Shown: positions 9,396 to 32,760, counted from the stretch's first letter. The stretch is 64,000 bases of DNA from an uncultured Gammaproteobacteria bacterium (GCA_964362195.1 CAYICZ010000001.1:3486-67485); one strand, 5' to 3'. Notes: generated by a model from the letters alone, not told the origin. Translations and numbers: made by a program.

Positions 9396-9998
9396 ATGGC
9401 TAGACCAAAAAAATCGATTGCAAAAACAACTGAAAATTATTTAGCTAGAGTTGAGGGTGAAATTCAATCTAACCAGTCCAAACTAAATATGGTCTTGGGG
9501 GCTTTAATTGTTTTGGTAGTGGGAATTTTAATTTTTAATTACTTTAACAAAAGTAGACCTGACTTAGGACCTGCACAAAGTACCACTTCAACAGATCAAC
9601 AGGATGTTGCTCCCGGTAACCTTCCCGGAAAATATACTGTTAAAGAAGGAGACACCTTATTTGATATAGCCAATACATATTATAATGATGGATATCAATA
9701 TAGTGAGATTGTCAAAACAAATAATTTAACAAATCCTGATACCATAGAAACCGGACAAGTCCTGGATATACCAAAACTGGAAAATGCCATTTTAACTCCA
9801 GTTATGCAAACTACTGATACGGAGTGGGGCCTAAAAATTACCGAAAATACATACACCGTGCAAGAGGGCGATTGGTTATCAACAATTGCGGGAAGAGCTT
9901 ACGGTGATATTTATGCTTATAGCAAAATTGCCCAAGCCAACAATATCCCTGATCCTGATAACATTGAAGTCGGTACAGTTCTCACTATCCCCAGATAA
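9396..9998 (+). CDS. LysM-domain protein (two LysM repeats), N-terminal membrane anchor
   Basis: YTVKEGDTLFDIANTYYNDGYQYSEIVKTNNLTNPDTIETGQVLDIP and YTVQEGDWLSTIAGRAYGDIYAYSKIAQANNIPDPDNIEVGTVLTIP are canonical LysM domains. The N-terminus has a TM helix. Confidence 0.8.
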   Translation: MARPKKSIAKTTENYLARVEGEIQSNQSKLNMVLGALIVLVVGILIFNYFNKSRPDLGPAQSTTSTDQQDVAPGNLPGKYTVKEGDTLFDIANTYYNDGYQYSEIVKTNNLTNPDTIETGQVLDIPKLENAILTPVMQTTDTEWGLKITENTYTVQEGDWLSTIAGRAYGDIYAYSKIAQANNIPDPDNIEVGTVLTIPR

Positions 9999-10031
9999 AC
10001 TGTTTTTGCTACAATATTCAAGTAGCAAAAC

Positions 10032-11648
10032 ATGAAATTAACTCACCATAAATTTAATCTTTTAATATTATCTGTTTTAGTCGTTTTTACCTATGCTTAT
10101 TTTCTAAATAATGCTTTTGTTTCAGATGATATAGCGGAAATTGCAAATAAACCTGAAATTGCCAACTTTTCCAGGATCTTACAATTCCCAACCGGTCCGA
10201 TCAGGCATATTATTTATTTTATTTCAGTACATATTGGGGGATTTAATCCATGGCCTTTTAGACTTTCTAATTTAATATTTCACCTTTTATCTACCTATTT
10301 AATCTATCTAATAATTTTAACCACTTATAAATCAAAAAAGGCTGCCTTTTTTGCATCTTCCTTATTTGCAGTCCATCCGGCTATTTCTGAAGCTGTTCTT
10401 TGGATCTCCGGCGGAATGTATACCCAATATACCTTCTTCTTTTTATTATCTTTTTATCTTTACATTAAGTCTGAGGGGAAAAGAGATTACTGGCTTTCTG
10501 TCTTGTTTTATCTTTTTTCTTTAATGTCCCACCCCCAAATGCCCATTACTCTTTTTGTAATTTATCCTTTATATGATTTTTGTTTCAGAAGGAATTTTAA
10601 GAAAAACTGGGTGCGGGCAATTCCATTTTTAATCCTGAGCTTAGTATATGTGTTCATAAGTTTAGGTGCGCTGCCGGCACGGGAAGCCACTCTGCAAACC
10701 GTTCATTATCAGGAAAAAGGAGTTGATAATATATTTACGCTAATCCCGGTTGCTATCTCATCTTATGCAGAGCTTTTGTTTTTCCCTAAAACTCTGACCT
10801 TGTATCACTCAGAGCTTAATTTTGGCACTATTTCTTTTGCAATAAGGGCAACTTTAACTTTAGTTTTTCTTGCCGGTTTCGTGCTGGCCTTTAAAAAGAG
10901 CCGGCCTGTTTTTTTCTGGCTGTCTTTTTCCTTAATTGCACTTTCATCTACCTTAACCCCTTTTAGATTAAACTGGATTGTTGCTGAGCGGTATATTTAC
11001 CTGCCCAGCATCGGCATCTTTACTCTGGTCGGATTAGGTTTGGATAAATTAATTTTAATTAAGAAAAAAAACAGCAATATAATTCTAGCTGCATTTGTAA
11101 TAATTATACTTTTATTATCTCTTAGGACCTTTATAAGAGGCATTGATTGGGAAAATGAGGATAATCTCTGGATAGCAACCGGTAAAACTTCTCCCTCTTC
11201 CCCAAATACGCATAACAATTTAGGGGATGTTTATGGGCGTCGGGGCGATAAACAAAGAGCTTTAAAAGAGTTTTCAAGGGCCATAGAGTTAAAACCTAAC
11301 TATGCCGATGCTTATCATAATTTGGGAAATACCTACAGGGAAATGGGTAATTTAGAAAAAGCTATGGAAAGCTACCTTATGGCAGCCAGGTTAAATCCTA
11401 ATCTTTGGCAGTCTTATCAAAATATAGCGGCCCTTTATTTCCAGTCAAAACAATACGATCTAGCTCTTCAATATATTCAAAAAGCCATCTCAGTAAATCC
11501 CAAAAATTTAAATCTTTATATTAATTTAGGGGTAGTATACTTGGCAGAGGGAAATAAAGAAAAAGCCAAAGAAGAATTTAGCAAAGTTTTATCAGCTGAC
11601 TCGACAAATCAAGTTGCCCAAGCAGGATATGCTGAGGCAAATAAGTGA
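10032..11648 (+). CDS. TMTC/PMT-like GT-C glycosyltransferase: N-terminal multi-TM domain plus C-terminal TPR repeats
   Basis: About 11 TM helices, with an FVSDD acidic motif in the first loop typical of GT-C enzymes. The C-terminus carries 5-6 TPRs (AIELKPNYADAYHNLGNTYREMGNLEKA ...). Confidence 0.6.
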   Translation: MKLTHHKFNLLILSVLVVFTYAYFLNNAFVSDDIAEIANKPEIANFSRILQFPTGPIRHIIYFISVHIGGFNPWPFRLSNLIFHLLSTYLIYLIILTTYKSKKAAFFASSLFAVHPAISEAVLWISGGMYTQYTFFFLLSFYLYIKSEGKRDYWLSVLFYLFSLMSHPQMPITLFVIYPLYDFCFRRNFKKNWVRAIPFLILSLVYVFISLGALPAREATLQTVHYQEKGVDNIFTLIPVAISSYAELLFFPKTLTLYHSELNFGTISFAIRATLTLVFLAGFVLAFKKSRPVFFWLSFSLIALSSTLTPFRLNWIVAERYIYLPSIGIFTLVGLGLDKLILIKKKNSNIILAAFVIIILLLSLRTFIRGIDWENEDNLWIATGKTSPSSPNTHNNLGDVYGRRGDKQRALKEFSRAIELKPNYADAYHNLGNTYREMGNLEKAMESYLMAARLNPNLWQSYQNIAALYFQSKQYDLALQYIQKAISVNPKNLNLYINLGVVYLAEGNKEKAKEEFSKVLSADSTNQVAQAGYAEANK

Positions 11649-11719
11649 GCCGACTACTGGAATCGAACCAGTGACCTGCTGTTTACGAAACAGCTACTCT
11701 ACCACTGAGCCAAGTCGGC
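11648..11719 (-). tRNA. tRNA-Thr (anticodon CGT)
   Basis: Minus-strand GCCGACTTGGCTCAGTGGTAGAGTAGCTGTTTCGTAAACAGCAGGTCACTGGTTCGATTCCAGTAGTCGGCT. The acceptor stem is perfect, the T-loop is TTCGATT, and the anticodon loop is TTCGTAA. No CCA is encoded. Confidence 0.75.
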
Positions 11720-11725
11720 CTCCTG

Positions 11726-11796
11726 AGCGGGGTACGAGAATTGGACTCGCTTCTCTACCTTGGGAAGGTAGCATACTACCGGTGTACTAACCCCGC
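11726..11796 (-). tRNA. tRNA-Gly (anticodon CCC), with a noncanonical T-loop
   Basis: Minus-strand GCGGGGTTAGTACACCGGTAGTATGCTACCTTCCCAAGGTAGAGAAGCGAGTCCAATTCTCGTACCCCGCT. It has a perfect 7-bp acceptor stem and anticodon stem CTACC/GGTAG with loop TTCCCAA. The T-loop is TCCAATT instead of TTCRANT. Confidence 0.65.
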
Positions 11797-11837
11797 AAGC
11801 TTATTCAATTGATTATTATACTCAAAAAACCTATACT

Positions 11838-12599
11838 GTGAATGATTACTATCGATTAGATAGGGTGTATTATATGTCCTCAAGATACAAATATAGAAGC
11901 GTTAAAAGATATCAAAGTAAAAGCAAACGTCGTTTCTTAGCCACTATTATAATAATAATTTTTTTGTTTTATGTTACTTTTACCTGGATTCTCCCTTTTT
12001 TAATCGGCGGATTAGGATTTATTAAGAATTTTACTAACCCTTCACACAAAGTAGTTACTCCACTTGATCAAACAACGCTGGCTCCTCCTGTACTTAATAT
12101 TCCATACGAGGCTACCAATACTGCTCAAATAGATATAGCTGGTTACGGCTCCCCTGGAGCTAAAGTAGAACTATTTTTAGATGATGATAAAAAACAAACG
12201 GTTGATGTAGAGGGTGATGGCATTTTTAAATTTAGTGATGTGTCCCTTTCCCTTGGTACAAATAATATTTATGGAAAATCCGTAGATGAAAAGAATCAGG
12301 AAAGTTTACCATCAAAAACATTAATAATAATTTTTGATAATGAAAAGCCAACCTTAAATATTTCAGAACCGGAAGATAATAAAGAAATAAACGGTGGGGA
12401 CAGAAAAGTAAAAATTTCAGGTAAAACAGAGGTCGGGGCATCAGTTTATATTAATGGTAATCAAGTTATAGTTGATAAAGATGGTACCTTTACAACTACT
12501 CAGGACTTAAATGAGGGAGATAATAATTTTGAAATTAAATCAATTGATGTAGCTAATAATTCAAATGAAGTTTCCAGAAAAGTGGTTTTTCATCCTTAA
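11838..12599 (+). CDS. Membrane-anchored protein with two predicted bacterial Ig-like beta-sandwich repeats (hypothetical)
   Basis: A basic cytoplasmic N-tail (RYKYRSVKRYQSKSKRRF) and a TM helix, followed by two similar modules rich in D/G/T/N (…VELFLDDDKKQTVDVEGDGIFKF… / …VYINGNQVIVDKDGTFTTTQDLNEGDNNFEIK…). Confidence 0.45.
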   Translation: MNDYYRLDRVYYMSSRYKYRSVKRYQSKSKRRFLATIIIIIFLFYVTFTWILPFLIGGLGFIKNFTNPSHKVVTPLDQTTLAPPVLNIPYEATNTAQIDIAGYGSPGAKVELFLDDDKKQTVDVEGDGIFKFSDVSLSLGTNNIYGKSVDEKNQESLPSKTLIIIFDNEKPTLNISEPEDNKEINGGDRKVKISGKTEVGASVYINGNQVIVDKDGTFTTTQDLNEGDNNFEIKSIDVANNSNEVSRKVVFHP

Positions 12600-13654
12600 C
12601 TTACCCAGTACCCGTTAATAAAAAGTATGGCATAAACCGATAACAACATTAAAGAAATAATCTGATAAAATAAACGTAAATATTGATTTTTATAAAAACT
12701 TAATGCAATAAAAATTGGAAAAATTGCCAGAATATATCTGGGGATAGCAACAATTGTCGGTGAAAACATTGGTAGTATTAATGAAACAACACTAAAAATG
12801 ACGTAGTCTAAACTTAATTTTTTCCAAACCTGCCAAACACCAAAAATTCCAAAGAGAACAAAGACTATATCTAATAAATTCCTGAAATTAGCTGCAATAG
12901 CTTCCATCGTCAAATGCCTGATAGCATATACTAAGGACGATCCGGGTAGAACCAATCCTTCATGCCAGAAAGCTGATTGGCCCTTAACAAAATAAAACAA
13001 GTCTCCTGTTTGAGTGTATAGATAAAAAGAGTATATGAGAAAACCCAAAGGAGAAAAAATTATCCACCAGTTTTTTTTATTAATACCTTCTGTTAAATAT
13101 ATGGGTAATACCAAACTTAAAACTGTAGCCAAACCCGCTAATCTTGTTGCAGAAGCCAAAGCGGCAAAGACGGCTGCCAAAAAATATTTTTTATTTCTGG
13201 CAAATATAAATGTAGCTACTGTCAGAAATAAAAATAAACTCTCGGTATAGACAGTTAGAAAATGAAAAGACAAAGGAAAAAATAGTAACGCCAATAATGC
13301 ACCACTGGCATATTGTTTTCCAAAATCTATCCTGATTAGGTGATACAATAAATTAACTGCCAGAAAAATTGAAACAAAACTAATTGTTAATCCAGCAGAT
13401 AAAAAATCTCCAGTTATCCTGGCCATTAAATTTATGAGGACAGGATAAAACGGGAAAAATACAAATTGGGTTGCAGTATAACCATTTTTGGCAATCGATA
13501 AATAATGTCCTCCGTCCCAATTTGCCAGATTTTTTAAAAAAACATGAGGAAATAAATCCGTGTGAGGTAAAAAAGAAAAACTAAAATAAAATATTATCAA
13601 AACTGCCACTGCCCAAATACTAATAACTACAGATGCGTTAGGGTATAATTTCAT
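12596..13654 (-). CDS. Polytopic membrane protein, PIG-V/GPI-mannosyltransferase-2-like (DUF2029-type) GT-C glycosyltransferase
   Basis: 10+ TM helices and an NWDGGHYLSIAKNGY motif typical of the PIG-V / GT76-like mannosyltransferase family. Confidence 0.5.
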   Translation of the reverse strand: MKLYPNASVVISIWAVAVLIIFYFSFSFLPHTDLFPHVFLKNLANWDGGHYLSIAKNGYTATQFVFFPFYPVLINLMARITGDFLSAGLTISFVSIFLAVNLLYHLIRIDFGKQYASGALLALLFFPLSFHFLTVYTESLFLFLTVATFIFARNKKYFLAAVFAALASATRLAGLATVLSLVLPIYLTEGINKKNWWIIFSPLGFLIYSFYLYTQTGDLFYFVKGQSAFWHEGLVLPGSSLVYAIRHLTMEAIAANFRNLLDIVFVLFGIFGVWQVWKKLSLDYVIFSVVSLILPMFSPTIVAIPRYILAIFPIFIALSFYKNQYLRLFYQIISLMLLSVYAILFINGYWVS

Positions 13655-13656
13655 TT

Positions 13657-14796
13657 ATGAATATAACATGGATATTAACACTGGCTTTCATCGCCGGTCA
13701 ATTAATTAAATTTCCACTTGGAGGTAGCGGCCCCACTTTGCTTGATCTGACAGTTTTAGTTTTATGTCTTTTGGAGATTATTAAGATAAAAATTAATCTG
13801 AAAGAACCTCCTTTATATATTAAGGCCGGCTTAGTTTTTATTTCAGTGGCATTACTTTCTCTGATTTTAACTCCACTTAAACTGACAATACCTGAATATT
13901 TAACAAGTTTTTTATATGTTGTCAGATTTTTTATTTTTATTTTTCTTGGATGGCTGCTTTATTCCGGTGCTTTTCCTAATTTAGCGAAAAACTCTCTCAA
14001 TATTTTATCTATCTCAGGAATAATCTTAGCAGTGCTGGGACTTATTCAACTTGTGATTTTACCGGATTTAAGATTCTTAAAACAATTTGGCTGGGATCCA
14101 CACTATTTCAGAACTGTTTCAACTTTTTTGGACCCCAATTTCCTGGGCGCATATCTTGTTTTAACTTTGATATTAATACACAAATCCAAAAAATGGTTTT
14201 TTGCAATAGTTTACCTAGCACTTTTAACAACTTTTTCAAGAGGCGCTTATCTCGCATTTTTAATAAGTTTTTTAACACTTGCCTTCTTAAATAGGTCCTT
14301 AAAACTGGCAATTATAACTATAATGCTTTTCCTTGGGTTGATGGTTGGATTTTTTTCATACCAGCATCAGGTTGCAGAACCAAGAGGTATTAATAGGGTA
14401 GAGTCTGCCCAGTTTAGGTTTAGCACCTGGCAGCAAGGCTGGCAGCTTTTTCAAAATCATATAGGCTTAGGGGTGGGTTTTAATACATATAGGTATGCCT
14501 TAAGGACATATCATTTGGCTGATATGACATTCCTTCAAACCCATGGTTCTTCAACTAATGACTCAAGCTTGTTATATGTGGCAGCCACTACTGGAATTAT
14601 TGGCCTGATAAGCTACCTGATTTTTTTAGGATCTATGTTTGCTTATGGAGTGAAAATAAACTTTTCCTTAGCTGCCGGGCTCTTAGGTCTAATAGCCCAA
14701 AGTTTTTTTGCCAATACTTTATTCTATCCTCCTATTCTTGCCTGGTTAATTCTTGTTGCAGCTATATCCCCTTCTTTAGCAAACCAAAAAAAGTAA
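13657..14796 (+). CDS. O-antigen ligase / Wzy_C-domain membrane protein
   Basis: Multi-TM protein with LLTTFSRGAYLAFLISFL (the SRG motif) and a large loop carrying R...W...GLGVGFNTYRYALRTYH, matching the Wzy_C family (WaaL/Wzy/PglL-type). Confidence 0.6.
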   Translation: MNITWILTLAFIAGQLIKFPLGGSGPTLLDLTVLVLCLLEIIKIKINLKEPPLYIKAGLVFISVALLSLILTPLKLTIPEYLTSFLYVVRFFIFIFLGWLLYSGAFPNLAKNSLNILSISGIILAVLGLIQLVILPDLRFLKQFGWDPHYFRTVSTFLDPNFLGAYLVLTLILIHKSKKWFFAIVYLALLTTFSRGAYLAFLISFLTLAFLNRSLKLAIITIMLFLGLMVGFFSYQHQVAEPRGINRVESAQFRFSTWQQGWQLFQNHIGLGVGFNTYRYALRTYHLADMTFLQTHGSSTNDSSLLYVAATTGIIGLISYLIFLGSMFAYGVKINFSLAAGLLGLIAQSFFANTLFYPPILAWLILVAAISPSLANQKK

Positions 14797-15748
14797 TTTT
14801 TTTAGGCCTGATATTTTGGATCATATAATCGTCAGAAACTATTTTTGATTTCTGAATTAAAAATCTTTTTTTTAATAAGCTTGGCAGATGAAATAAAATA
14901 TAAGCGTCCGCAGCTAAAGCTTGTTTCAAAAATCCTTTCTTTGCCATATAAATTATTGTATTTATATTAACAAGCAGTATCTTTAGCCAGTTTAAATCAA
15001 TAAGAAAAAGTTTTAGCGGGTAATCCTTAATAATATTTTGGGTCATATTTCTAAAATGCCAGTATTCAGAAAGAGAAACTATCCTGGAAGAAGTAGCTTT
15101 GCGCATATGATAAAGTATTGCCTTTGGTTCATACCAGCCCTTAAAACCTGCAATTTGCGCTCTCAAACATAAATCAACATCTTCCATATAAGTATGGTAA
15201 TCTTCATCAAAGTAACCTACTTTTTCAAAAATTTGCCTTTTAAAAAGACTGCTTCCTCCTGTTGCCAAAAAAATGTATTGAGGCTTATTAAACTCAATAC
15301 TATCTTTTTTACCCTGACCAACAGAATATGAGTGGCCTACAACCGAAACCGCATCCCATGCTGAGTCAATTATTTTCCTATTATAAAAATTAAGCATTTT
15401 TGCAGCAACAAATCCCACGTCCGGATGATTATCCGATGCCTTAACCAGATATTCCAGGTAACGACTATCCAGCTCGGTATCATTATTTAATAAAACCAGG
15501 TATTCTCCTTTTGCATTTTTTATTCCGGTATTTACAGCTTTTGTAAAACCATAGTTTTTATCCAGTGGAATTACTTTAACTTTGGGAAAATATTTTTTTA
15601 TGTACTCTACTGAGGTGTCAGAAGAACCATTATCAACTATTACTACTTCAAAGTTCTTCAGTGTCTGTCTTTCTAAAGATTCCAGACAAACCTTTAATAA
15701 ATGCCTACCATTCCAATTGGGAATTATAACCGACACTTTTGTTTTCAT
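14762..15748 (-). CDS. Glycosyltransferase family 2
   Basis: VSVIIPNWNGRHLLKVCLESLERQTLKNFEVVIVDNGSSD ... LNNDTELD, a GT2 GT-A fold with DxD. Confidence 0.8.
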   Translation of the reverse strand: MKTKVSVIIPNWNGRHLLKVCLESLERQTLKNFEVVIVDNGSSDTSVEYIKKYFPKVKVIPLDKNYGFTKAVNTGIKNAKGEYLVLLNNDTELDSRYLEYLVKASDNHPDVGFVAAKMLNFYNRKIIDSAWDAVSVVGHSYSVGQGKKDSIEFNKPQYIFLATGGSSLFKRQIFEKVGYFDEDYHTYMEDVDLCLRAQIAGFKGWYEPKAILYHMRKATSSRIVSLSEYWHFRNMTQNIIKDYPLKLFLIDLNWLKILLVNINTIIYMAKKGFLKQALAADAYILFHLPSLLKKRFLIQKSKIVSDDYMIQNIRPKKITFFGLLKKGI

Positions 15749-16461
15749 TTTTTAATAACCAAAATCACCCGGTAAAAGGGCGGCAAGGGTAGCGAAAATA
15801 AGAAAAATAAAATCCGATATAGCCTTTTTAAACTTTTACTGATAAGTTTTTCATGGTTAATTGTAAAGAGCCAATGTATTAAAAACCAGGCTAACAAATT
15901 GGCATTTCCAAAAACTTTTATACTTTTCTTTGTAATACCAAGCTCCTCAAGCTTAAGTAAGATATCATCTTTTTCCGGCAAACCATTTTTTTTATGCTCC
16001 CCAAGCCAGGGATGCTCTTTTTTGTATTTTTTAAAAAACAAATCATTTATCCGTTTTTCAAATTCGGCACTCTTATCACCGCTGGGAAAACTTAAAGTTA
16101 TAATTCCGCCTTTTTTTGTAACCCTAACAAGCTCGGAAATTGCCTTACCTCTTTTTTGGACATTTATATGCTCAAGCATATCAAGACAAACAACATTGTA
16201 GAAACTCTCATCTTTCAGGGGCAGTTTAAATACGCTTCCCTTAATATGCCTTATATTGGGATTTTTTTTAGTTCCTGTTTTTGAAAAATCAGTATCTATT
16301 CCAATTACTGAACCCTTAAAATAGTCGGATATTCCGCTTCCGCCGGAACCAACTTCCAACACAGGAAGCCCTGCGTATTTTGATTTCTCAATTAAATCAA
16401 CAACAATCTTATATCTTAGGGCGCTGTCAAAATTAAATTTTGCTCTTTGTGGAAAAGTCAT
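15745..16461 (-). CDS. Class I SAM-dependent methyltransferase
   Basis: VLEVGSGGSGISDYF (motif I) ... VVCLDMLEHI (motif post-II), methyltransferase type 11-like. Confidence 0.7.
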   Translation of the reverse strand: MTFPQRAKFNFDSALRYKIVVDLIEKSKYAGLPVLEVGSGGSGISDYFKGSVIGIDTDFSKTGTKKNPNIRHIKGSVFKLPLKDESFYNVVCLDMLEHINVQKRGKAISELVRVTKKGGIITLSFPSGDKSAEFEKRINDLFFKKYKKEHPWLGEHKKNGLPEKDDILLKLEELGITKKSIKVFGNANLLAWFLIHWLFTINHEKLISKSLKRLYRILFFLFSLPLPPFYRVILVIKK

Positions 16462-16463
16462 CT

Positions 16464-17687
16464 CTATTTGAGCAATTTTACCCTAATATAGAAAAAGAAT
16501 ACAACAAATCCCAATACATCTGAGACAAGTGTTGACCAGGCTGAACCGAAATAGCCAAATTTCGGAATTAAATAAAAATTCAATGATATATTTAAAATTA
16601 AATTGAAAATAGAAAATACAGTTAAAAATTTTAGAAACTTTTTATCTGAAAAAAGTATTATTCCCTGAGGTGAAATCATAAACATAAAAGGTATTGTCAG
16701 GGATAAAATTTTAACAACTTCTATCGCCTTAACATATTGCGGCAAAAGGTAAGTTATGATCATGGGAAGGAAAAAAAGATAAGCTCCAACAATTACAATT
16801 GATAATACAAATAAAAAGACTGTTGATTTGATATAAATCTGATAGACTCTTTTAGGATCTTTATTTATCAGACTGACAATATTGGGAAAAAGTGCAGTTG
16901 ACAGAGCAGAAGGAACAAAAATTAAACTTTCTAAAAATTTATACCCAGCACTATAAATTCCGGAATCATAATTTCCTTTCAAATAGTTTAAAATCAGGGT
17001 ATCTATTTTAAAATAAAGCAGTCCCAGTACACCTACGAATCCATACGGCAAAGATCCCCATATAATTTTCTTTAACAATTCTAAACTTACTTGCATATTA
17101 AGTCCTAATTTTTGCCATCTTAAAAAAATCCCAAGAATCAAAAAATAAATTATTTGGCCAAATATCAAAGCCAACACTACTCCCCTGATATTCAACCCGG
17201 ACAAAATAAAAATCACTCCAATAATGCTAGTAGAGATGCTTAAACCCACCATCGCAAGAGCCGAATACTCCAGTTTTTTAAAGGCAACAAAAATACTGTC
17301 AATTGTAAGAGCCAAAGCCTGTGGGAAAACAGCCAAAGTTGCAAGCAAAACCAAAGAAACTCTGATTTTTTCCGGATCCAGAAAATATAAGAGAGTTGCG
17401 AAGATGGCAAATAAAACTGAAACAATGGTTGTACGAAGTAGACTAACGCTAAAAAGTAATTGAGATACTTTTAGTTTATCCACTGCCAGCTCTGTAATTA
17501 AATACCTATTAAATCCAAATTCCGAAATAGAAGAAAAAAGGGAAAAATATGCTAAAACTGCAGAATATAATCCAAAATCAGAAACCCCCAGATTCCTTGC
17601 CAAAAAAATGGTGTAGATAAAACCAATCATCCGGGTCAAAACTTGAGCAATAAAAAGCCATGAAGCCTGACCTAAAATTTTACGCAT
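16464..17687 (-). CDS. Polysaccharide biosynthesis protein / Wzx-like flippase (MOP superfamily)
   Basis: 407 aa with about 12 predicted TM helices. The N-terminus MRKILGQASWLFIAQVLTRMIGFIYTIFLARNLGVSDFGLYS is typical of Wzx/RfbX flippases. Confidence 0.7.
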   Translation of the reverse strand: MRKILGQASWLFIAQVLTRMIGFIYTIFLARNLGVSDFGLYSAVLAYFSLFSSISEFGFNRYLITELAVDKLKVSQLLFSVSLLRTTIVSVLFAIFATLLYFLDPEKIRVSLVLLATLAVFPQALALTIDSIFVAFKKLEYSALAMVGLSISTSIIGVIFILSGLNIRGVVLALIFGQIIYFLILGIFLRWQKLGLNMQVSLELLKKIIWGSLPYGFVGVLGLLYFKIDTLILNYLKGNYDSGIYSAGYKFLESLIFVPSALSTALFPNIVSLINKDPKRVYQIYIKSTVFLFVLSIVIVGAYLFFLPMIITYLLPQYVKAIEVVKILSLTIPFMFMISPQGIILFSDKKFLKFLTVFSIFNLILNISLNFYLIPKFGYFGSAWSTLVSDVLGFVVFFFYIRVKLLK

Positions 17688-17704: not shown

Positions 17705-18613
17705 TTACTTTTCAAAATATTCATAAACATTTTTTGATATTTGAGCTATTCGATCCTCTGCACCGGCAGGTATATCAGATTTTGATAGAACAACTATTAT
17801 ATAGTCTCCTTTTGTACTAAAAACTATTCCCCCGTCGTGAGAAAAATAACCTAGCTCACCGGTTTTATGAGCAATTATTACTCCCTGAGGTAAATTTTTT
17901 GGCAATTTATTATTAAGCTGTTGTTTTTTAAGCAGATCAATCATCTGGTTAGTATAATCCTGATTTCCTAATACTCCCTTATAAAGTTTTTCAAAAAATA
18001 AGGCTATATCCGATGCAGTTGTAGTAGGACTTTCACCATTAATTCCAACCGTTGACTCATTGAATCCATTTTTTCCTAAAAATAAATCTACCCTGGATAG
18101 TCTTATTTTCTTTGTCAGAAGAAGTGCTGCGTAATTATGCGATATTGAAATCATCTGGCTTAAAGAATCTGCAACAGAAAGAGTTATTGTCCCTTCCGTT
18201 AACTCTGCATCCTCACCTGGAATATTAAAGATATTATTTAAAGTAGATACATCCTCTGATAAAATTTCATCTTCTGATAAATCTCCTTTTTGAATCTGAT
18301 TAAAAATTTCTGTCATAATCCAAAGTTTATAAAGGCTTCCTGCATCAAAAACTTGGTGTTCATTAAGAAAATAACTTTCCCCGTTCTTTAAGTTTTTAAC
18401 AGCAACTGCGTAAGTACCATTACTTCCCTCAAGAGCAGACTTTACTGCATTCTCTAAACTATTAATTTTTTGAATCTTTACCTCCGGTGTTATCAAAAAA
18501 ATTTTATTTGGCTTAAGATAAAAGTAGTAAAATAGAAAATATATACAAATAATTGCCAAAAATATTAAAACTCCTGTTATTTTAAGATTATCTTTTGCAC
18601 GTCTGGTTATCAT
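17705..18613 (-). CDS. Class A beta-lactamase-related serine hydrolase (PBP-like), membrane anchored
   Basis: SxxK (FDAGSLYKLWI), an SDN-like SHN, and a KTG (HKTGELG) box. The start was moved to the Met at 18611-18613 because the longer ORF overlaps tRNA-Val. Confidence 0.6.
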   Translation of the reverse strand: MITRRAKDNLKITGVLIFLAIICIYFLFYYFYLKPNKIFLITPEVKIQKINSLENAVKSALEGSNGTYAVAVKNLKNGESYFLNEHQVFDAGSLYKLWIMTEIFNQIQKGDLSEDEILSEDVSTLNNIFNIPGEDAELTEGTITLSVADSLSQMISISHNYAALLLTKKIRLSRVDLFLGKNGFNESTVGINGESPTTTASDIALFFEKLYKGVLGNQDYTNQMIDLLKKQQLNNKLPKNLPQGVIIAHKTGELGYFSHDGGIVFSTKGDYIIVVLSKSDIPAGAEDRIAQISKNVYEYFEK

Positions 18614-18628
18614 TATCAAAATTAATAG

Positions 18629-18700
18629 TGGACGACGTTGGGATTGAACCAACGGCCTGTCGCATGTGAAGCGACCGCTCTACCACTGAGCTAGTCGTCC
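18629..18700 (-). tRNA. tRNA-Val (anticodon CAC)
   Basis: Minus-strand GGACGACTAGCTCAGTGGTAGAGCGGTCGCTTCACATGCGACAGGCCGTTGGTTCAATCCCAACGTCGTCCA. Anticodon stem GTCGC/GCGAC with loop TTCACAT. Confidence 0.8.
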
Positions 18701-18723
18701 TTTTCCCTCCAATAATTCTAGCA

Positions 18724-18744
18724 TTGGAGCTCTTGCACCACAAC
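18724..18744. repeat. Direct repeat copy A (TTGGAGCTCTTGCACCACAAC) flanking the TA cassette
   Basis: 20 of 21 nt identical to copy B at 19542-19562. It lies between the tRNA-Val 5' end and the PIN gene stop. Confidence 0.6.
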
Positions 18745-18773
18745 TGAATCCGAGTACTGCTTTTTTTTGACTG

Positions 18774-19208
18774 TTATTTAACTAATTCATCAGGGGTTAC
18801 CACTTTAACTGTAAAATGTAATTTAATTTCTTGCTTCTGATGCAATAGGTGCTTTCTATCAAAGCTAACTAAGTAATCTGCTTTAGCTAAAATAGCACCT
18901 GCCACAATCGGAGCATCTTTTAACTCAACAACTTTTGAAACCTTAGATACTAATGCTTTAGTAGGAATTACTATCTCTGGATTTAAAGCTTCCAGGAATA
19001 GTTGCAAAACGGAAAGTGCCTTCGGCGCCTTCTTTGCTAAATTCTTTTGGGTTTCTTCTATTACCAAATCACTTACAATTAATTCAAGTTCTCCAGAAAA
19101 AGATTTCATTATTAGATCTCTGGCGAAACCCCTGGGAGAAATAGCAGCAGCAATAAGGACACTGGAGTCTATGAAAACTCTAATTATCTTTTTTGGATTT
19201 GAGGCCAT
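18774..19208 (-). CDS. PIN-domain ribonuclease, putative type II toxin (VapC-like)
   Basis: 144 aa; acidic residues in PIN positions (FIDSSVLIAAA ... IEET ... SFDRKH). It overlaps the upstream antitoxin gene by 29 nt. Confidence 0.7.
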   Translation of the reverse strand: MASNPKKIIRVFIDSSVLIAAAISPRGFARDLIMKSFSGELELIVSDLVIEETQKNLAKKAPKALSVLQLFLEALNPEIVIPTKALVSKVSKVVELKDAPIVAGAILAKADYLVSFDRKHLLHQKQEIKLHFTVKVVTPDELVK

Positions 19209-19491
19209 ACTTTTTTTCTATTAAGCTACCACGCACGTTCCGACCGGATTCGATTAACTCCTCTAAAGAGAACCCCTTTCCCCTTAACACTTCACCAAGT
19301 TTATCAAGAGCTTTATTAGCGACTACTTGTTGAGGAGTAATCAATACACCTTCATTTGTTTGCTCCACAGCAACTAAGTCTCCCTTTTTAAGGCCTAGTT
19401 TCTCCCGCACTTCCATCGGAAGAGTTACTTGACCTTTTTCCTGGACACGCACTAATTTTCTCTCTGAATATGTAGTTTGTAGGAAAGTCAT
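19180..19491 (-). CDS. AbrB/MazE/SpoVT-family antitoxin (swapped-hairpin DNA-binding domain)
   Basis: GQVTLPMEVREKLGLKKGDLVAVEQTNEGVLITP is an AbrB/MazE-type motif. It is encoded immediately upstream of the PIN gene and overlaps it. Confidence 0.7.
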   Translation of the reverse strand: MTFLQTTYSERKLVRVQEKGQVTLPMEVREKLGLKKGDLVAVEQTNEGVLITPQQVVANKALDKLGEVLRGKGFSLEELIESGRNVRGSLIEKKYGLKSKKDN

Positions 19492-21593: not shown

Positions 21594-22661
21594 TTATTCC
21601 CCTTCTGTGTCAATTCTGCGTTTAAATTTCTCAACTGATGAGATCATACCTAAGGAAAAAAGAGTGGCTATTAAAGAACTGCCACCGTATGAAATTAAAG
21701 GCAAAGTAATACCGGTTATAGGTAATAGCCCCAAATTCATTCCGGTGTTAACAAAGAATTGAAACAAAAGCATAGATAAAGTGCCAAAAATAATTAAAAA
21801 ATTAAATAAATCATTAACCGAAGTGGCAATTTTAATGCAGTAAATAAATAAAAATAAATACAAGGATAAAATAATCAAGGATCCCAAAAATCCCATTTCT
21901 TCGGCAATTGAAGCAAAAATAAAATCAGTTCTAAATTCCGGTAAGAATTGCAATCTTGACTGTGTACCTCTTCCCAATCCTCTTCCGAAAAACTCACCTG
22001 AACCTACAGCAATTGTTGATTGAATTAAGTTATAGCCGCGGCCCAGTGGATCACTGTCAGGGGATAAAAAAGAAGTAATTCTTTGTTTTTGATAATCGTG
22101 CAAAAAAAGCCAGCTTGTTGGAACAATAAATAAAATAATAAGTCCCAGGATTAAAATTTTCTTAAAAGAAACCCGAGCCCCAAACAACATTCCAAACCAG
22201 ATTGCCAAAAGAGATAAAGATGATCCTAAATCCGGTTGTTTAAATATTAAAATTACCAATGGTAAACTTATAAGGAAACTTTTAAAAATACTAATCCAGG
22301 AAGGAAAATTCTTAGACCAGAATTGTGCCAAAAATAATATTAAAACCGGTTTGGCAAATTCTGATGGTTGAATATTAAATATCCCCAGAGGTATCCACCT
22401 GACTGACCCGCGGGCTTCTATTCCTAAAAATAGGACTAAAATTAGTAATAAAACTATTATTATATATAATGGGAAAATTAAATTTTTTATGGATTTAACT
22501 TCGATCTGAGAAATAAAAAAATAAGTTAACAACCCGACAAATGTAAAGACTGTTTGTTGTATTGCAAGCTCTACTGATGAAGAATAAATAACCAAAATTC
22601 CAATAGAAATCAAAAGTAAGCTGCAAAGTAATATTGGAATATTAAATAGTTTAAGAAACAT
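21594..22661 (-). CDS. SEDS-family peptidoglycan glycosyltransferase (FtsW/RodA/SpoVE family; RodA-like second copy)
   Basis: 355 aa, about 10 TM helices, conserved SEDS loop motifs (…GSGEFFGRGLGRGTQSRLQFLPE…). Confidence 0.75.
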   Translation of the reverse strand: MFLKLFNIPILLCSLLLISIGILVIYSSSVELAIQQTVFTFVGLLTYFFISQIEVKSIKNLIFPLYIIIVLLLILVLFLGIEARGSVRWIPLGIFNIQPSEFAKPVLILFLAQFWSKNFPSWISIFKSFLISLPLVILIFKQPDLGSSLSLLAIWFGMLFGARVSFKKILILGLIILFIVPTSWLFLHDYQKQRITSFLSPDSDPLGRGYNLIQSTIAVGSGEFFGRGLGRGTQSRLQFLPEFRTDFIFASIAEEMGFLGSLIILSLYLFLFIYCIKIATSVNDLFNFLIIFGTLSMLLFQFFVNTGMNLGLLPITGITLPLISYGGSSLIATLFSLGMISSVEKFKRRIDTEGE

Positions 22662-29928: not shown

Positions 29929-30636
29929 ATGCCTGCCAGAAATAGAACAAAACAATATACAGAAAATGGTTATTACCACATCTACAACCGTGGTGTAGAA
30001 AAAAGATTGATATTTATAGACTTGCAGGATTATGCAGTTTTTCTTTCTTATCTTAACGATTATTTAACTCCAAAGAAAGAAAAAGAACTTCAAGATAAAT
30101 TTTCTGGCCCAAATACTTCTTATAAAGAAAAGGCTAGAATTTTAAAATTACTACGCCTAAAAAATTATTCTGACGAAATAACAGTGCTTGCATACTGTCT
30201 AATGCCTAATCACTTTCACTTCTTCCTAAAACAAAAAAACAAATATTCTATCAATCAATTCCTGCATTCAATATGTACAAGATACACTATGTATTTTAAT
30301 AGAAAACATAAAAGAATAGGTCCATTGTATCAGGACATCTATAAAGCAGTCTCAATTGATCATGAAGAACAATTCATTTACTTATCAAAATATATCCATA
30401 AACAGGCACTTTCTCACAAAAAATCTCCAAGCTCAAAAGAACCAGCCTTACGAGGCTACGAACAACAACCTTCCTCTTATCCTGAATACTTGGGAGAAAG
30501 AAAAACTGACTGGATCCATCCGGAAGATGTATTAAATTATTTTTCCAAAACGAATCCTAAACTTTCATATAAAGCATTTGTAGAGGAAATTGGCGATGAT
30601 TTTTCAATTATACAAAATGAGCTATTGGAGGATTAA
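29929..30636 (+). CDS. tnpA: IS200-like / REP-associated tyrosine transposase (Y1 HuH transposase, TnpA/RAYT-like) with a C-terminal extension
   Basis: YHIYNRGVEKRLIF (N-terminal motif), CLMPNHFHFFL (HuH motif) and GPLYQDIYKAV (catalytic Tyr region). At 235 aa it is longer than typical TnpA. Confidence 0.75.
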   Translation: MPARNRTKQYTENGYYHIYNRGVEKRLIFIDLQDYAVFLSYLNDYLTPKKEKELQDKFSGPNTSYKEKARILKLLRLKNYSDEITVLAYCLMPNHFHFFLKQKNKYSINQFLHSICTRYTMYFNRKHKRIGPLYQDIYKAVSIDHEEQFIYLSKYIHKQALSHKKSPSSKEPALRGYEQQPSSYPEYLGERKTDWIHPEDVLNYFSKTNPKLSYKAFVEEIGDDFSIIQNELLED

Positions 30637-30640
30637 GATT

Positions 30641-30660
30641 CCTAAAACTAAGCTGATTGT
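30641..30660. repeat. Direct repeat copy R (CCTAAAACTAAGCTGATTGT), overlapping the last codons and stop of ftsW
   Basis: Near-identical to copy L at 29855-29874. Confidence 0.65.
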
Positions 30661-31745
30661 TTGGAAATGTTAAGCAGGATTCCAACAGCGGCCAGATTGG
30701 CAACTAATGCTGAGCCACCATAGGAAATAAAGGGCAGAGGTACGCCTGTTAACGGAAGGAGTGCAGTCATAGCAGAGAGATTAATCACCACCTGAATCCC
30801 CAGCCAGCTAATTAATCCTAAGGCTAAAATTTTTCCAAAATTATCAGGACAATTTGTGGCAATTTTAAAACCCCGATGCATTAATATCCCAAAAAGAGTA
30901 ATTAAAAAAAGCCCTCCTAGCAAACCCAGCTCTTCTCCAATAATTCCAAATATAGAATCTGTGATAACCTCAGGAATATATTCAAATTTTTGTCTTGAAT
31001 GACCCAAACCTAATCCAAATAAACCTCCGGAACCTAAGGCGATCAGGACTTGGGATATATGGTAGGTAAATCCTTGCGGATCAGAAAAAGGATCTAAAAA
31101 AGCCGCAATTCTTTTGCTCCTATAACCTGAGGTAAATATCAATACCAATAATCCTCCAACCATAAATGGTATGGCTGCTAAAAAATGCCAAAGCGGACCA
31201 TAGCTGACAAAATATAAGACAGTTGATATAGCAACAAAAACAATAGCAGAACCCAAATCTTTTTGCAAAACAGCAGTAATAAAAGTAACTATTCCTACAA
31301 GGACAATAAAAGGCATAAGCCGTACTTTTTTCTCAAAAATACTCGCCAAAAAAATCACACTTGTTAGCTTGATAATCTCCGCAGGTTGCAATGTTAATGG
31401 TCCCAAGCGTAGCCACCTGTGAGCTCCCCCACCTGAAACTCCCAAACCAGGTATAAAAACAGCCAGCAATAGGATTAGGGAGAAACCTAACATCGGGAAA
31501 GCTAAACTTTTAAATTTTTTATAATCAAAGCTGGAAAAAAAAAACATGGAAAACAAACCAATTAAAACCCAGATTAATTGTTGCCTTATGTAATAAGTGC
31601 CATCCTTAAAATCTTTAAGCGCTTGAATAACAGAAGCGTCGTATACCATAATTAATCCGAAAATTACTAAAATGCCTACAACAATTAATAGAGGATAGTC
31701 AATATTTTTATTTTGTAACTTCAGACGATCTTTTGAAAACTCCAT
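30648..31745 (-). CDS. ftsW: Cell division SEDS protein FtsW
   Basis: Multi-TM SEDS protein sitting between mraY and murG. The start was chosen at MEFSKDRL to avoid overlap with mraY. Confidence 0.8.
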   Translation of the reverse strand: MEFSKDRLKLQNKNIDYPLLIVVGILVIFGLIMVYDASVIQALKDFKDGTYYIRQQLIWVLIGLFSMFFFSSFDYKKFKSLAFPMLGFSLILLLAVFIPGLGVSGGGAHRWLRLGPLTLQPAEIIKLTSVIFLASIFEKKVRLMPFIVLVGIVTFITAVLQKDLGSAIVFVAISTVLYFVSYGPLWHFLAAIPFMVGGLLVLIFTSGYRSKRIAAFLDPFSDPQGFTYHISQVLIALGSGGLFGLGLGHSRQKFEYIPEVITDSIFGIIGEELGLLGGLFLITLFGILMHRGFKIATNCPDNFGKILALGLISWLGIQVVINLSAMTALLPLTGVPLPFISYGGSALVANLAAVGILLNISKQSA

Positions 31746-31749
31746 AAAA

Positions 31750-32760
31750 TTATCTAGATAGTAGTGCAATCCAAAGGCCAAAGATTGCAAAAAGGCCCTG
31801 GGCCAACCAAAACCTGGCAACTATTTTTGGTTCTTCCCAACCAATATATTTAAAATACATATGGATAGGGGATACTGGAAATAATTTTTTCTTTATAATT
31901 TTTTTGGAAAGTATTTGCAACAGCGACGAACCAACTATTACAACAAACATACCGCCAATAATCGCCAGAGCTAAAATTTTTCCTGTTAAAAGTCCAACAA
32001 CTGCCAGAGTTGCACCAAAAGCAAACGCTCCGGCATCTCCCAAAAAAATCCTGGCAGGCCAAACATTAAAATAAAGGTAAGCAAAAAGCGCCCCAATCCA
32101 AATCCCAGCAAAAGAGGCTAAAGTTAAATCCAGAAACGTTGAAGTTAAAGCGAGAAAAGCAAATAAACAAATCAACAAAAGCCCTGCAGATAAACCATCT
32201 AATCCATCGGAAATATTATAGGCATTAGAAAAAGCAACTATGGTAAATGCTGCCAAAGGAATATACCAAATACCTATTATCAGATTTCCCAAGCCGGCAA
32301 TATACAAATTATTAAGCCCCCCTAAAAAATAAAGCATTGAAGCAATAGCCAGGGCAAAAATCGACTGAATTAATAGCATTCTTTTTCTGCCAAGTCCAAG
32401 AAATTTTCCTTTTCTTCTGGTAATAATCAGCTTAATATCATCAACCATTCCCAAAGATCCAAAAGAAATTAGGGTAATAAGTAAAATACTTAAGCTAATT
32501 TTATCTACATCAGGACTGAATAAAGAATATCCAATGCTAAGTAATATTAAAACCAAAATCAAAAGTATTCCTCCTCCAGATGGAGTATTCTCATCAGATT
32601 TCATAAGAGCATCATGAATTGGAGTATCTGATTGTTTTAAATCACTTTTATTTTGTTTCCCAAAGCGGCGCTTTAAATAGAAAAGGAAGTCAATAAAAGG
32701 CACCATAAAAATGCCGGTAATTACAAACGATAATATAACCAAACCTAAAAGACTTGTCAT
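31750..32760 (-). CDS. mraY: Phospho-N-acetylmuramoyl-pentapeptide transferase MraY
   Basis: 336 aa, 10 TM helices, motifs NAYNISDGLDGL and DDxxD-like VDDIKL. Confidence 0.9.
   Translation of the reverse strand: MTSLLGLVILSFVITGIFMVPFIDFLFYLKRRFGKQNKSDLKQSDTPIHDALMKSDENTPSGGGILLILVLILLSIGYSLFSPDVDKISLSILLITLISFGSLGMVDDIKLIITRRKGKFLGLGRKRMLLIQSIFALAIASMLYFLGGLNNLYIAGLGNLIIGIWYIPLAAFTIVAFSNAYNISDGLDGLSAGLLLICLFAFLALTSTFLDLTLASFAGIWIGALFAYLYFNVWPARIFLGDAGAFAFGATLAVVGLLTGKILALAIIGGMFVVIVGSSLLQILSKKIIKKKLFPVSPIHMYFKYIGWEEPKIVARFWLAQGLFAIFGLWIALLSR

Follow-up and report, generated by a model that had tools for sequence, protein, structure and literature searches.

Two neighbouring gene modules, one built around a TMTC homologue, with a putative role in envelope glycosylation in a probable member of Candidatus Daviesbacteria

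Results

Gene content and host of the locus

We analyzed a 64,000-nucleotide stretch of DNA (CAYICZ010000001.1:3486-67485 of assembly GCA_964362195.1; hereafter the window), recorded as coming from an uncultured Gammaproteobacteria bacterium. The work is centred on eight genes between positions 9396 and 17687 that a previous description, made from the sequence alone (the sequence-only reading), had taken as a glycosylation block. All eight open reading frames (ORFs) were found where that reading had placed them and their domains were confirmed with Pfam and NCBIfam, except for the start of one gene (see below). As one block, the eight genes did not stand. In sister genomes, variable inserts part the first two genes, coding for a LysM protein and a TMTC-like protein, from the group that runs from the Ig-like and Wzy_C genes to the Wzx gene, and a single co-inherited eight-gene operon was therefore rejected. 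The interpretation that we favour, with moderate confidence, is that the locus corresponds to two neighbouring, separable envelope-glycosylation modules in the core genome of Candidatus Daviesbacteria. Their components are divergent members of known families and not a new kind of system.

Module A comprises two genes on the plus strand. The first (9396-9998) encodes a membrane-anchored protein with an N-terminal transmembrane helix and two stretches of LysM, a peptidoglycan-binding domain (Pfam LysM, E 1.6e-24). It ends 33 nucleotides (nt) before the second (10032-11648), which encodes a TMTC-like glycosyltransferase (GT) of 538 residues, made of a GT-C(A) domain followed by tetratricopeptide repeats (TPRs; Pfam TPR_1, E 5.6e-32). 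Module B begins with the gene of a type II membrane protein carrying immunoglobulin (Ig)-like domains (11874-12599, plus strand; Glucodextran_B/Big_6). An optional gene follows on the minus strand (12596-13654), coding for a polytopic PIG-V-like GT-C enzyme of 352 residues (PF04188, GT76-type, 25.0 bits), and then, on the plus strand, the gene of a Wzy_C membrane enzyme of 379 residues with a predicted WaaL fold (13657-14796; Pfam Wzy_C, E 2.2e-13). A variable cassette on the minus strand encodes a soluble or peripheral family 2 glycosyltransferase (GT2; 14762-15748; Glycos_transf_2, E 2.9e-34) and an S-adenosylmethionine-dependent methyltransferase (15745-16461; Methyltransf_11, E 1.2e-12). 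The module ends with the gene of a Wzx-type MOP flippase, also on the minus strand (16464-17687; Polysacc_synt, E 1.4e-30). The earlier assignments of the Wzy_C, GT2, methyltransferase and Wzx proteins are thus confirmed by Pfam.

The genes of module B are interleaved on the two strands. The Ig-like and PIG-V-like genes overlap tail to tail by 4 nt, the PIG-V-like and Wzy_C genes start head to head 2 nt apart, and the Wzy_C and GT2 genes overlap tail to tail by 35 nt. Such a layout was seen in 26 of 43 sister loci. Supposing that the Ig-like and Wzy_C genes, which are adjacent and co-oriented where the PIG-V-like gene is absent, are co-transcribed, their transcript would be antisense through the PIG-V-like gene. 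Likewise, a Wzx-methyltransferase-GT2 transcript would be antisense through the Wzy_C gene. A scan for promoters and terminators was uninformative (40 promoter-like sequences versus 38 expected, 13 terminator-like sequences versus 7.1 expected).

Judging from the names of the homologues, the host is probably a member of Candidatus Daviesbacteria (Microgenomates, candidate phyla radiation, CPR). An identical protein is present on contigs of the Hainich groundwater 0.1-µm metagenome. TMTC-like genes were also found in many public metagenome-assembled genome records (TPA_asm, binchicken/SRP co-assemblies) that bear the title 'uncultured Gammaproteobacteria bacterium', and in one titled 'Planctomycetia' (loci L007-L010, L016, L018, L024-L028, L033, L034, L036, L044, L053, L057 and L058). 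Most of these loci are of the Daviesbacteria type in gene order and sequence (53-74% identity), and the titles of the records look wrong. L053, L057 and L058 are only remotely related (38-40% identity) and do not have the Daviesbacteria gene order.

The TMTC-like protein

The protein encoded at 10032-11648 comprises 11 transmembrane helices forming a GT-C(A) domain (residues 1 to ~385, nt 10032 to ~11186), followed by four to five TPRs at residues ~390-535, where TPR_1 matched four stretches. The membrane domain (residues 1-388) had no Pfam match even at E 10. A profile made of 13 orthologous N-domains gave no match among PDB sequences, and PMT_2 matched only 2 of the 13 orthologues, weakly. 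An AlphaFold2 model of residues 1-388 was obtained with a predicted local distance difference test score (pLDDT) of 80.6 and a predicted TM-score (pTM) of 0.87. When this model was compared to the PDB with Foldseek, 19 of the first 20 matches were GT-C enzymes, including STT3, AglB, PglB, ArnT, Pmt1/2, Pmt4, DPY19, Emb and AftA; the other one, at rank 13, was PIG-U of the glycosylphosphatidylinositol (GPI) transamidase. Foldseek probabilities were 0.98-1.00 for 18 of these 20 matches and 0.93-0.95 for two DPY19 matches, with query TM-scores up to 0.56. According to the model, the membrane domain has the GT-C fold that the sequence-only reading had expected.

As a reference for TMTCs, we used the published N-domain alignment of animal TMTC1-4 (supplement of Eisenhaber et al. 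2021, PMC7801869). With hhalign, the Daviesbacteria profile aligned to TMTC1-4 over 363-366 columns at 25% identity, with a probability of 99.6% in local mode (E 6e-24) and 99.9% in global mode (E 2e-32). Reciprocal hidden Markov model (HMM) searches gave 40-78 bits, the TMTC HMM scoring 77.5 bits on the window protein. Control proteins from the same window gave hhalign probabilities of 85% and 10% (two PMT_2 GT-Cs), 9% (PIG-V-like) and 0.4% (Wzy_C). On this profile evidence, the 538-residue protein is a true TMTC homologue, full-length over the membrane domain. The TMTC-like architecture, which the sequence-only reading had put forward, is thus upheld by hhalign, by the reciprocal searches and by the controls.

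The FVSDD loop motif pointed out earlier is part of the sequence NAFVSDDIAEI (residues 27-37), invariant or nearly so in orthologues. In the 13 divergent orthologues, D32 and D33, directly after the first transmembrane helix, are invariant, as are R58, H115-P116, E120 and A318-E319-R320-Y321-x-Y323. D32 and D33 provide the acidic motif of the first extracytoplasmic loop by which class A GT-C enzymes are recognized. Of the TMTC motifs, M1 (DD, loop 1) and M7 (AERxxY, loop 5) are invariant here, M2 (SHKSYRP) is reduced to its Arg, and PxxP of M6 becomes PxxxP. Altogether, the motifs common to the window protein and animal TMTC1-4, which are protein O-mannosyltransferases of cadherins and belong to the GT-C/PMT clan, comprise FVxDD, the Arg of SHKSYRP, GlnP..(F/Y)(H/R)LxN, the helix LFAVHP..(T/S)EAV, DNP and AERxxY(L)PSxG. 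The animal proteins have the same plan, an 11-helix GT-C domain with non-cytoplasmic C-terminal TPRs. The window protein departs from them in being bacterial, in having four to five TPRs only and in having a LysM gene as a partner; it also differs in the DUF1736 region and in motifs M3 to M5, as discussed below.

Short loops rich in Lys and Arg (KSEGKRD, RRNFKK, KKSR, KKKN) alternate with the motif-bearing loops. Because the number of helices is odd (11) and the basic loops follow a positive-inside pattern, the topology is predicted to be N-in/TPR-out, as in TMTCs. The catalytic DD loop, the AERxxY loop and the TPRs would then all face outward.

The N-domain profile found 34,485 fifty-percent clusters at E<=1e-10. 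The best 150 matches of a representative-library search were close relatives only and offered no bridge to annotated families. TMTCs belong to the GT-C enzymes and have lumenal TPRs; full-length homologues, likewise with GT-C domain and TPRs in one chain, exist in prokaryotes (PMC7801869). Because of the huge size of the family and of these homologues already noted, the TMTC-like enzyme should be viewed as a divergent member of a known family and not as a new one. The published work gives one deltaproteobacterial example, without gene context or function, whereas the present case is an orthologous group of CPR bacteria with a fixed LysM neighbour.

The mannosylation proposed in the sequence-only reading found no support. 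There is no nucleotide-sugar gene and no mannose-pathway gene anywhere in the window, and three TMTC donor/metal motifs are replaced. As 'mannose' is unsupported, mannosylation was rejected as a stated specificity for want of evidence.

About one third of the TMTC-like orthologues (~600 residues; P0003, P0006-P0008, P0018, P0028 etc.) carry an extra N-terminal cytoplasmic segment of ~65-75 residues. This segment (e.g. ...HSQKNYIKKNLRFLSVEEIAQNLTVPKEDILDYLRKRWGKEKL...) resembles a small helix-turn-helix-like domain and the window copy does not have it.

The LysM partner of module A

The comparative set contained about 140 loci, 60 from genomes, found with the TMTC-like profile, and 80 from metagenomes, found with the Wzy_C profile. 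The 60 genome loci fell into two score classes, an orthologous one (at least 636 bits) and a far one (at most 484 bits). In the orthologous class, which is of the Daviesbacteria type, the TMTC-like gene is preceded by a LysM gene on the same strand, no more than 400 nt upstream in 33 of 36 loci and no more than 1.4 kb upstream in 36 of 36. Gaps between the LysM and TMTC-like genes are 2-79 nt. This pairing is previously unremarked.

The linker joining the two LysM domains is on average 40 residues long in the orthologues. It contains 23% Ser and Thr, and 34% Ser, Thr and Pro, as compared to 9% and 14% in the LysM domains. In the window copy, the linker is shorter and rich in Thr. Low-complexity linkers of this kind are targets of bacterial O-glycosylation systems, as in Neisseria. 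The Ser/Thr-rich linkers sought in exported neighbours are thus found in the LysM protein and not in the Ig-like protein, the linker of which has only ~15% Ser and Thr and is not of low complexity. From its composition, the LysM linker is our best candidate for the acceptor of the TMTC-like enzyme. In most LysM orthologues, a conserved GTGGG(D/N)(T/M)TIWGPKIEG motif stands right before the second LysM domain, and in several of them the motif contains an N-x-T sequon.

In the far class, homologues of the module-B GT2 are located nearby in 12 of 21 loci. One such locus, in Roizmanbacteria (L041, CP066689.1, 1500-17800), has its TMTC-like gene among those for an NDP-sugar epimerase, a sugar C-methyltransferase (Methyltransf_13/14) and a B12-binding radical SAM enzyme, along with a GT4, five GT2 and a Wzx. 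This content suggests that the glycan is heavily modified and that the TMTC-like family may act as the terminal transferase of such loci.

The Wzy_C enzyme of module B and its Ig-like neighbour

The Wzy_C protein (13657-14796) gave no match in a single-sequence search of the PDB. A profile of 28 orthologous sequences found only the WaaL structure 7TPG (E 3e-4). An AlphaFold2 model (pLDDT 89, pTM 0.89) compared to the PDB with Foldseek had WaaL (7tpg_B) as its sole match at E<=0.001 (E 9.8e-6, TM-scores 0.52/0.50) in a PDB set that contained no competing PglL or Wzy structure. As modelled, the protein has the WaaL fold.

E. coli K-12 WaaL residues were located by MAFFT and HMMER alignments; hhalign of the Wzy_C profile with the single E. 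coli WaaL sequence gave only 38.5%, with an unreliable gap in the His region. WaaL residues R215, R288 and H338 correspond to R195, R254 and D302, all three being invariant in the 28 orthologues. In E. coli WaaL, the three residues are functionally important; they are conserved in PglL, and for WaaL and PglS the His has been proposed as the catalytic base. Both pyrophosphate-binding Arg are therefore kept, and the essential-residue set of WaaL is broken at the His position by an Asp. The size is similar to that of WaaL from C. metallidurans (7TPG) and E. coli K-12 (379 versus 403-419 residues). A true lipopolysaccharide (LPS) O-antigen ligase was rejected on account of the missing His and of the lack of an LPS context. 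Nor was the protein seen to group firmly with WaaL-type ligases linked to LPS core genes, an outcome that would have spoken against a role in protein glycosylation; the 64-kb window contains no LPS core gene.

The protein also shares the Wzy_C core, and presumably the use of undecaprenyl-pyrophosphate-linked glycans, with the PglL/PilO/PglS O-oligosaccharyltransferases (O-OTases) and with WsaB/WsfB of Firmicutes S-layer glycosylation. It has neither the PglL_A/Wzy_C_2 domains and proposed catalytic His nor the large periplasmic C-terminal domain of PglL-type enzymes. PglL_A (PF15864) and Wzy_C_2 (PF11846) were unmatched, with PF04932 alone found at E<=0.01 in the window protein and alone present in the Pfam lists of 120 homologues. 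Membership of the PglL family was rejected since its defining motifs are absent. Thus, the comparison of PglL with WaaL ended in a WaaL fold, while by defining residues and motifs the protein belongs to neither family. The enzyme should act on an undecaprenyl-pyrophosphate-linked glycan, be it as a ligase, an O-OTase or a polymerase. A second Wzy_C protein in the window (50454-51869, 471 residues) has a Ser/Thr-rich insertion of ~90 residues in an external loop. Judging by motif spacing in an alignment that is gapped there, it appears to have an Asp as well at the position of the WaaL His. A literature search on CPR Wzy_C proteins or envelope glycosylation returned nothing specific.

The neighbouring Ig-like protein matched Glucodextran_B (7.9e-15), Big_6 (1.5e-6) and Cadherin-like (3.3e-4) in Pfam. 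It has a basic cytoplasmic tail, one transmembrane helix and Ig-like domains. The gene and its Ig-like domains were as described in the sequence-only reading, which had taken the mechanical ORF from GTG 11838. Its start is most likely ATG 11874, giving 241 residues, in view of the N-termini of orthologues (MAYRYxSRRS...) and of an independent gene call. The protein is a candidate acceptor or accessory subunit of the Wzy_C enzyme.

PIG-V-like protein, variable cassette and flippase

The PIG-V-like protein (12596-13654) scored 25.0 bits with PF04188, above the gathering cut-off of 22.4, over positions 54-206 of the 443 of the profile, and 11 of 12 orthologues matched the same family (best E 2.8e-13). 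The motif NWDGGHYLSIAKNGY reported earlier was found in the translation and is invariant or nearly so in orthologues, with W46, D47, G48, H50 ... F66, F67 and P68 invariant. Membership of the PIG-V family is thus confirmed. No relative in the PDB was detected by sequence or profile searches. Likeness to PIG-V/Gpi18, the GPI mannosyltransferase II, consists in the score above gathering and in the WDxxH(Y/F)LxIAxxGY...FFP motif. Differences are the size (352 residues), the partial cover of the profile and the dispensability of the gene, absent from 17 of 43 loci. To our knowledge, bacteria have no GPI pathway.

The best solved relatives of the GT2 (14762-15748) are the chondroitin synthase K4CP, GalT1, TarP and TarS, DPMS and ArnC being weaker. 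It also matched a TuaG-like family (E 2.3e-14) and resembles EpsD and PgaC-type enzymes. Since polymer and oligosaccharide GT2s come out ahead of ArnC and DPMS, a polyprenyl-phosphate-sugar synthase was rejected; the protein is more likely a generic Leloir GT2 that would extend a lipid-linked glycan on the cytoplasmic face. The methyltransferase presumably O-methylates a sugar. The combination of a GT2 and a methyltransferase recalls S-layer glycan loci. The flippase gave NCBIfam scores of 4.4e-11 with Wzx_EPS, 8.5e-9 with SpoVB and only 4.8e-4 with MurJ. Its identification as MurJ was set aside on this weak score, a possibility that we retain. No Wzz-like chain-length regulator was found in the block with Pfam or NCBIfam.

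Candidate donor and primer genes elsewhere in the window

A GT2 of 234 residues encoded at 59658-60362 (minus strand) matched, in NCBIfam, AglJ (7.9e-31), PgfS (7.7e-18), PpgS (1.9e-17), ArnC (2.7e-14) and the dolichyl-phosphate hexose transferase (3.3e-13), all of these matches being below the curated cut-offs. By these matches it is the better candidate for a polyprenyl-phosphate-sugar synthase and could supply lipid-phosphate sugar to the GT-C enzymes. Another possible remote partner is a WbaP-type priming phosphoglycosyl transferase (45059-45688, minus strand; Bac_transf 1.6e-61, NCBIfam EPS_sugtrans 1.8e-75), the sole enzyme of this kind in the window. MraY is encoded in the division and cell wall (dcw) cluster of the window.

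The primer gene belongs to a separate large glycan locus (43183-63899). This locus further encodes a DUF4012 protein, five GT4, two PMT_2 GT-Cs, a hexapeptide acyltransferase, three GT2, two methyltransferases, a Wzx and the 471-residue Wzy_C protein. ORFs 51871-52419 and 55233-56582 had no Pfam match.

Conservation of module B and of the surrounding genes

Comparison across CPR genomes revealed conservation of the genes. In metagenome loci, the Ig-like gene is directly upstream of the Wzy_C gene in 42 of 43 cases, with the PIG-V-like gene between the two in 26 of 43. Among the 80 metagenome loci, 46 have a Wzx gene downstream of the Wzy_C gene, and many of the 80 end before the place where it would lie; of the 18 genome loci containing Wzy_C, 17 have it. 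The Wzy_C-to-Wzx cassette (0.6-2.9 kb) carries a GT2 or a GT4, with or without a methyltransferase, and is swapped between strains. Thus, GT4 takes the place of GT2 in sister genomes and the methyltransferase occurs in some loci only. In the most distant locus (L147, 35% identity), the Wzy_C, PIG-V-like and Ig-like genes are still clustered, in a changed order.

The modules are flanked by housekeeping genes, DnaE-GatCAB-M48-LemA-PolX upstream and the signal peptidase S26-ParB-L27-L21-FtsW-IleRS downstream. Between the modules, sister genomes carry unrelated inserts, for instance type IV pilus genes or glyoxalase. In the window, positions 17705-19491, between the Wzx and signal peptidase genes, encode a class-A beta-lactamase-like protein anchored in the membrane (Beta-lactamase2, E 4e-39) as well as a toxin-antitoxin pair (PIN / MazE-AbrB). 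They look inserted because Wzx directly precedes signal peptidase-ParB in most sister genomes.

Further downstream, an IS200-like transposase gene (Y1_Tnp; 29929-30636) lies on the opposite strand between MurG and FtsW of the division and cell-wall cluster. A similar Y1_Tnp gene is found near the IleRS gene of another Daviesbacteria genome (L004). The window encodes two FtsW/RodA (SEDS) paralogues (21594-22661 and 30648-31820), and a single class-B penicillin-binding protein was seen in it (36988-38685).

Discussion

Family assignments made in the sequence-only reading were right, including that of the TMTC-like protein; the interpretation it built on them is partly supported. Two departures from family-defining features stand out from the alignments, the altered ligand motifs of the TMTC-like protein and the His-to-Asp change in Wzy_C.

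In our preferred interpretation, two modules would work side by side. In module A, the TMTC-like enzyme would, by homology, use a polyprenyl-phosphate sugar as donor and transfer a single sugar to Ser or Thr of an exported protein selected by the TPRs, for which the LysM linker would be the best acceptor candidate. In module B, the GT2 would extend a primer coming from elsewhere, and the product would be methylated and then translocated by Wzx. On the outer side, transfer of the glycan would fall to the WaaL-fold Wzy_C enzyme, and the PIG-V-like GT-C, where present, may attach one more sugar, taken from a polyprenyl-phosphate donor. For the Wzy_C enzyme, we lean slightly towards a non-LPS ligase having the Ig-like protein as its acceptor or obligate partner, on account of the invariant Ig-like pairing, the short cassette, the absence of Wzz and, elsewhere in the window, the presence of a second, full Wzx/Wzy locus. 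We consider a polymerase nearly as likely.

Several observations weigh against this interpretation. First, TMTC motifs M3 (RxD), M4 (KE(T/Q)xxT) and M5 (DW), which are among the seven ligand motifs of TMTCs and bind metal, phosphate and mannose (PMC7801869, Table 4), are replaced by invariant SGGxY, SHPxMP and YHSE, so that the donor chemistry may differ. Second, DUF1736 (PF08409) was unmatched in the window protein (E up to 10), in the 13 orthologous N-domains and in the Pfam lists precomputed for 120 homologues. The corresponding loop region, between transmembrane helices 7 and 8, does align, DNP being kept and DW lost. Human TMTCs match DUF1736 at E<1e-30, with the exception of the canonical TMTC1 entry Q8IUR5 (3e-19), in which sequence errors are suspected (PMC7801869). 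Third, no LysM neighbour was found in any of 18 loci of the far class (Roizman-, Morani-, Levyi-, Woyke- and Gottesmanbacteria), and these relatives are embedded in loci for glycan assembly, together with a Wzx and numerous GT2s, a setting as compatible with a glycan acceptor as with a protein one. Fourth, module B has no priming phosphoglycosyl transferase of its own (none in 9396-17687 with Pfam), and its Wzy_C protein is devoid of PglL-specific motifs and has the size of a WaaL or a Wzy. In monoderm bacteria, a Wzy_C protein encoded next to a Wzx is usually taken to be a polymerase. Fifth, gene order is conserved across Daviesbacteria generally, from PolX to S26-ParB. Because the surrounding housekeeping order is conserved too, adjacency counts within the clade as no more than weak to moderate evidence of function. 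Finally, for all of the proteins, we infer the donor, the acceptor, the identity of the sugar and the choice between ligase and polymerase from homology, fold, conserved residues and gene linkage.

An alternative that we regard as possible, though doubtful, is that all these genes serve one classical Wzx/Wzy pathway for a cell-wall polysaccharide. Wzy_C would be the repeat-unit polymerase, a role proposed for TuaE or WpaA/B of Firmicutes. Outside the membrane, the two GT-Cs, PIG-V-like and TMTC-like, would add decorations to the polymer or attach it, with the TPRs as a polymer scaffold. The function of the LysM and Ig-like proteins would be to hold the machinery at the wall, and proteins would not be glycosylated. 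Module B does resemble monoderm Wzx/Wzy loci in its MOP flippase, its Wzy_C-domain protein, its TuaG-like GT2 and its strain-variable GT content, the whole being arranged like an O-antigen or capsule locus. One such locus is tuaABCDEFGH of B. subtilis, which directs the Wzx/Wzy-dependent synthesis of the teichuronic acid polymer. The absence of PglL motifs, the likeness of the GT2 to TuaG, EpsD and PgaC-type enzymes, and the distant TMTC-like relatives located without LysM in glycan loci containing Wzx, epimerase, GT2/GT4 and methyltransferases point the same way. Moreover, glycans or lipids are the substrates of many bacterial GT-C(A) enzymes, and ArnT, Emb and Aft are among the fold matches. 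However, module B differs from such loci in having no primer and no Wzz-like protein, and in having an extra GT-C and an invariant Ig-like partner gene. The window already contains one complete Wzx/Wzy locus, which has a Wzy_C and a primer of its own, and unrelated inserts split the two modules in sister genomes. The closest characterized relatives of the TMTC-like enzyme are protein O-glycosyltransferases, and the invariant LysM pairing and the linker rich in Ser, Thr and Pro would be left unexplained.

According to the sequence-only reading, Wzy_C could be a PglL/PilO-like O-OTase from which the Ig-like protein, and perhaps others, would receive the flipped glycan en bloc; the TMTC-like and PIG-V-like enzymes would be protein or glycolipid mannosyltransferases. 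This we consider rather unlikely as a whole. In its favour is the gene pairing. The Ig-like gene is directly upstream of Wzy_C and co-oriented in 42 of 43 loci, and the pair survives rearrangement. The Wzy_C gene lies in this way beside a candidate exported target, and PglL-type genes often adjoin their target genes, in 21 of 31 cases (PMC3643930). The short GT cassette implies a short glycan. As far as we know, CPR bacteria are regarded as lacking LPS, so a WaaL-type lipid A acceptor is unlikely. Other features speak against it. The only solved relative is WaaL, PglL_A and Wzy_C_2 are unmatched, and the His that is essential in WaaL and conserved in PglL and PglS is an Asp. There is no extra periplasmic domain and the protein is smaller than known O-OTases, PglS having 548 residues. 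In addition, the composition of the Ig-like linker is not that of a typical target, and nothing points to mannose.

A more specific proposal combines a minimal ancestor-type TMTC pathway, in which a TPR-guided GT-C would O-glycosylate the linker of its LysM partner, with an Asp-based WaaL-fold enzyme that would attach a short methylated glycan to the Ig-like surface protein. In this complete form, we judge the proposal improbable. Least probable of all, and by our estimate very unlikely, is a mere conserved chromosome order, with unrelated envelope genes lying between PolX and signal peptidase-ParB: the flanking housekeeping order and the variable inserts between and after the modules (type IV pilus, glyoxalase, beta-lactamase-like, toxin-antitoxin) agree with it, but genes within modules stay together despite inserts, with gaps of 2-79 nt or overlaps, the Wzy_C/PIG-V-like/Ig-like trio survives rearrangement in L147, and Wzx, GT, methyltransferase and Wzy_C are biochemically coherent.

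CPR bacteria are tiny, mostly uncultured and reliant on surface contacts, and the chemistry of their envelope is almost unknown. The two modules give testable candidate pairs of enzyme and substrate, the TMTC-like protein with the LysM linker and the WaaL-fold enzyme with the Ig-like protein, conserved in dozens of genomes. The catalytic activity of TMTCs was described in a 2021 analysis as not directly demonstrated (PMC7801869). A bacterial TMTC homologue of 538 residues with an adjacent candidate substrate could be a tractable model for this family, which is linked to human disease. Should the ancestor-type pathway with an Asp-type ligase be true, the locus would offer a compact bacterial model for TMTC enzymology, and the Wzy_C ligases of LPS-free bacteria would include a new catalytic subclass. 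The change of His to Asp in both Wzy_C paralogues of the window, only apparent in the second, hints at a different catalytic solution in these bacteria.

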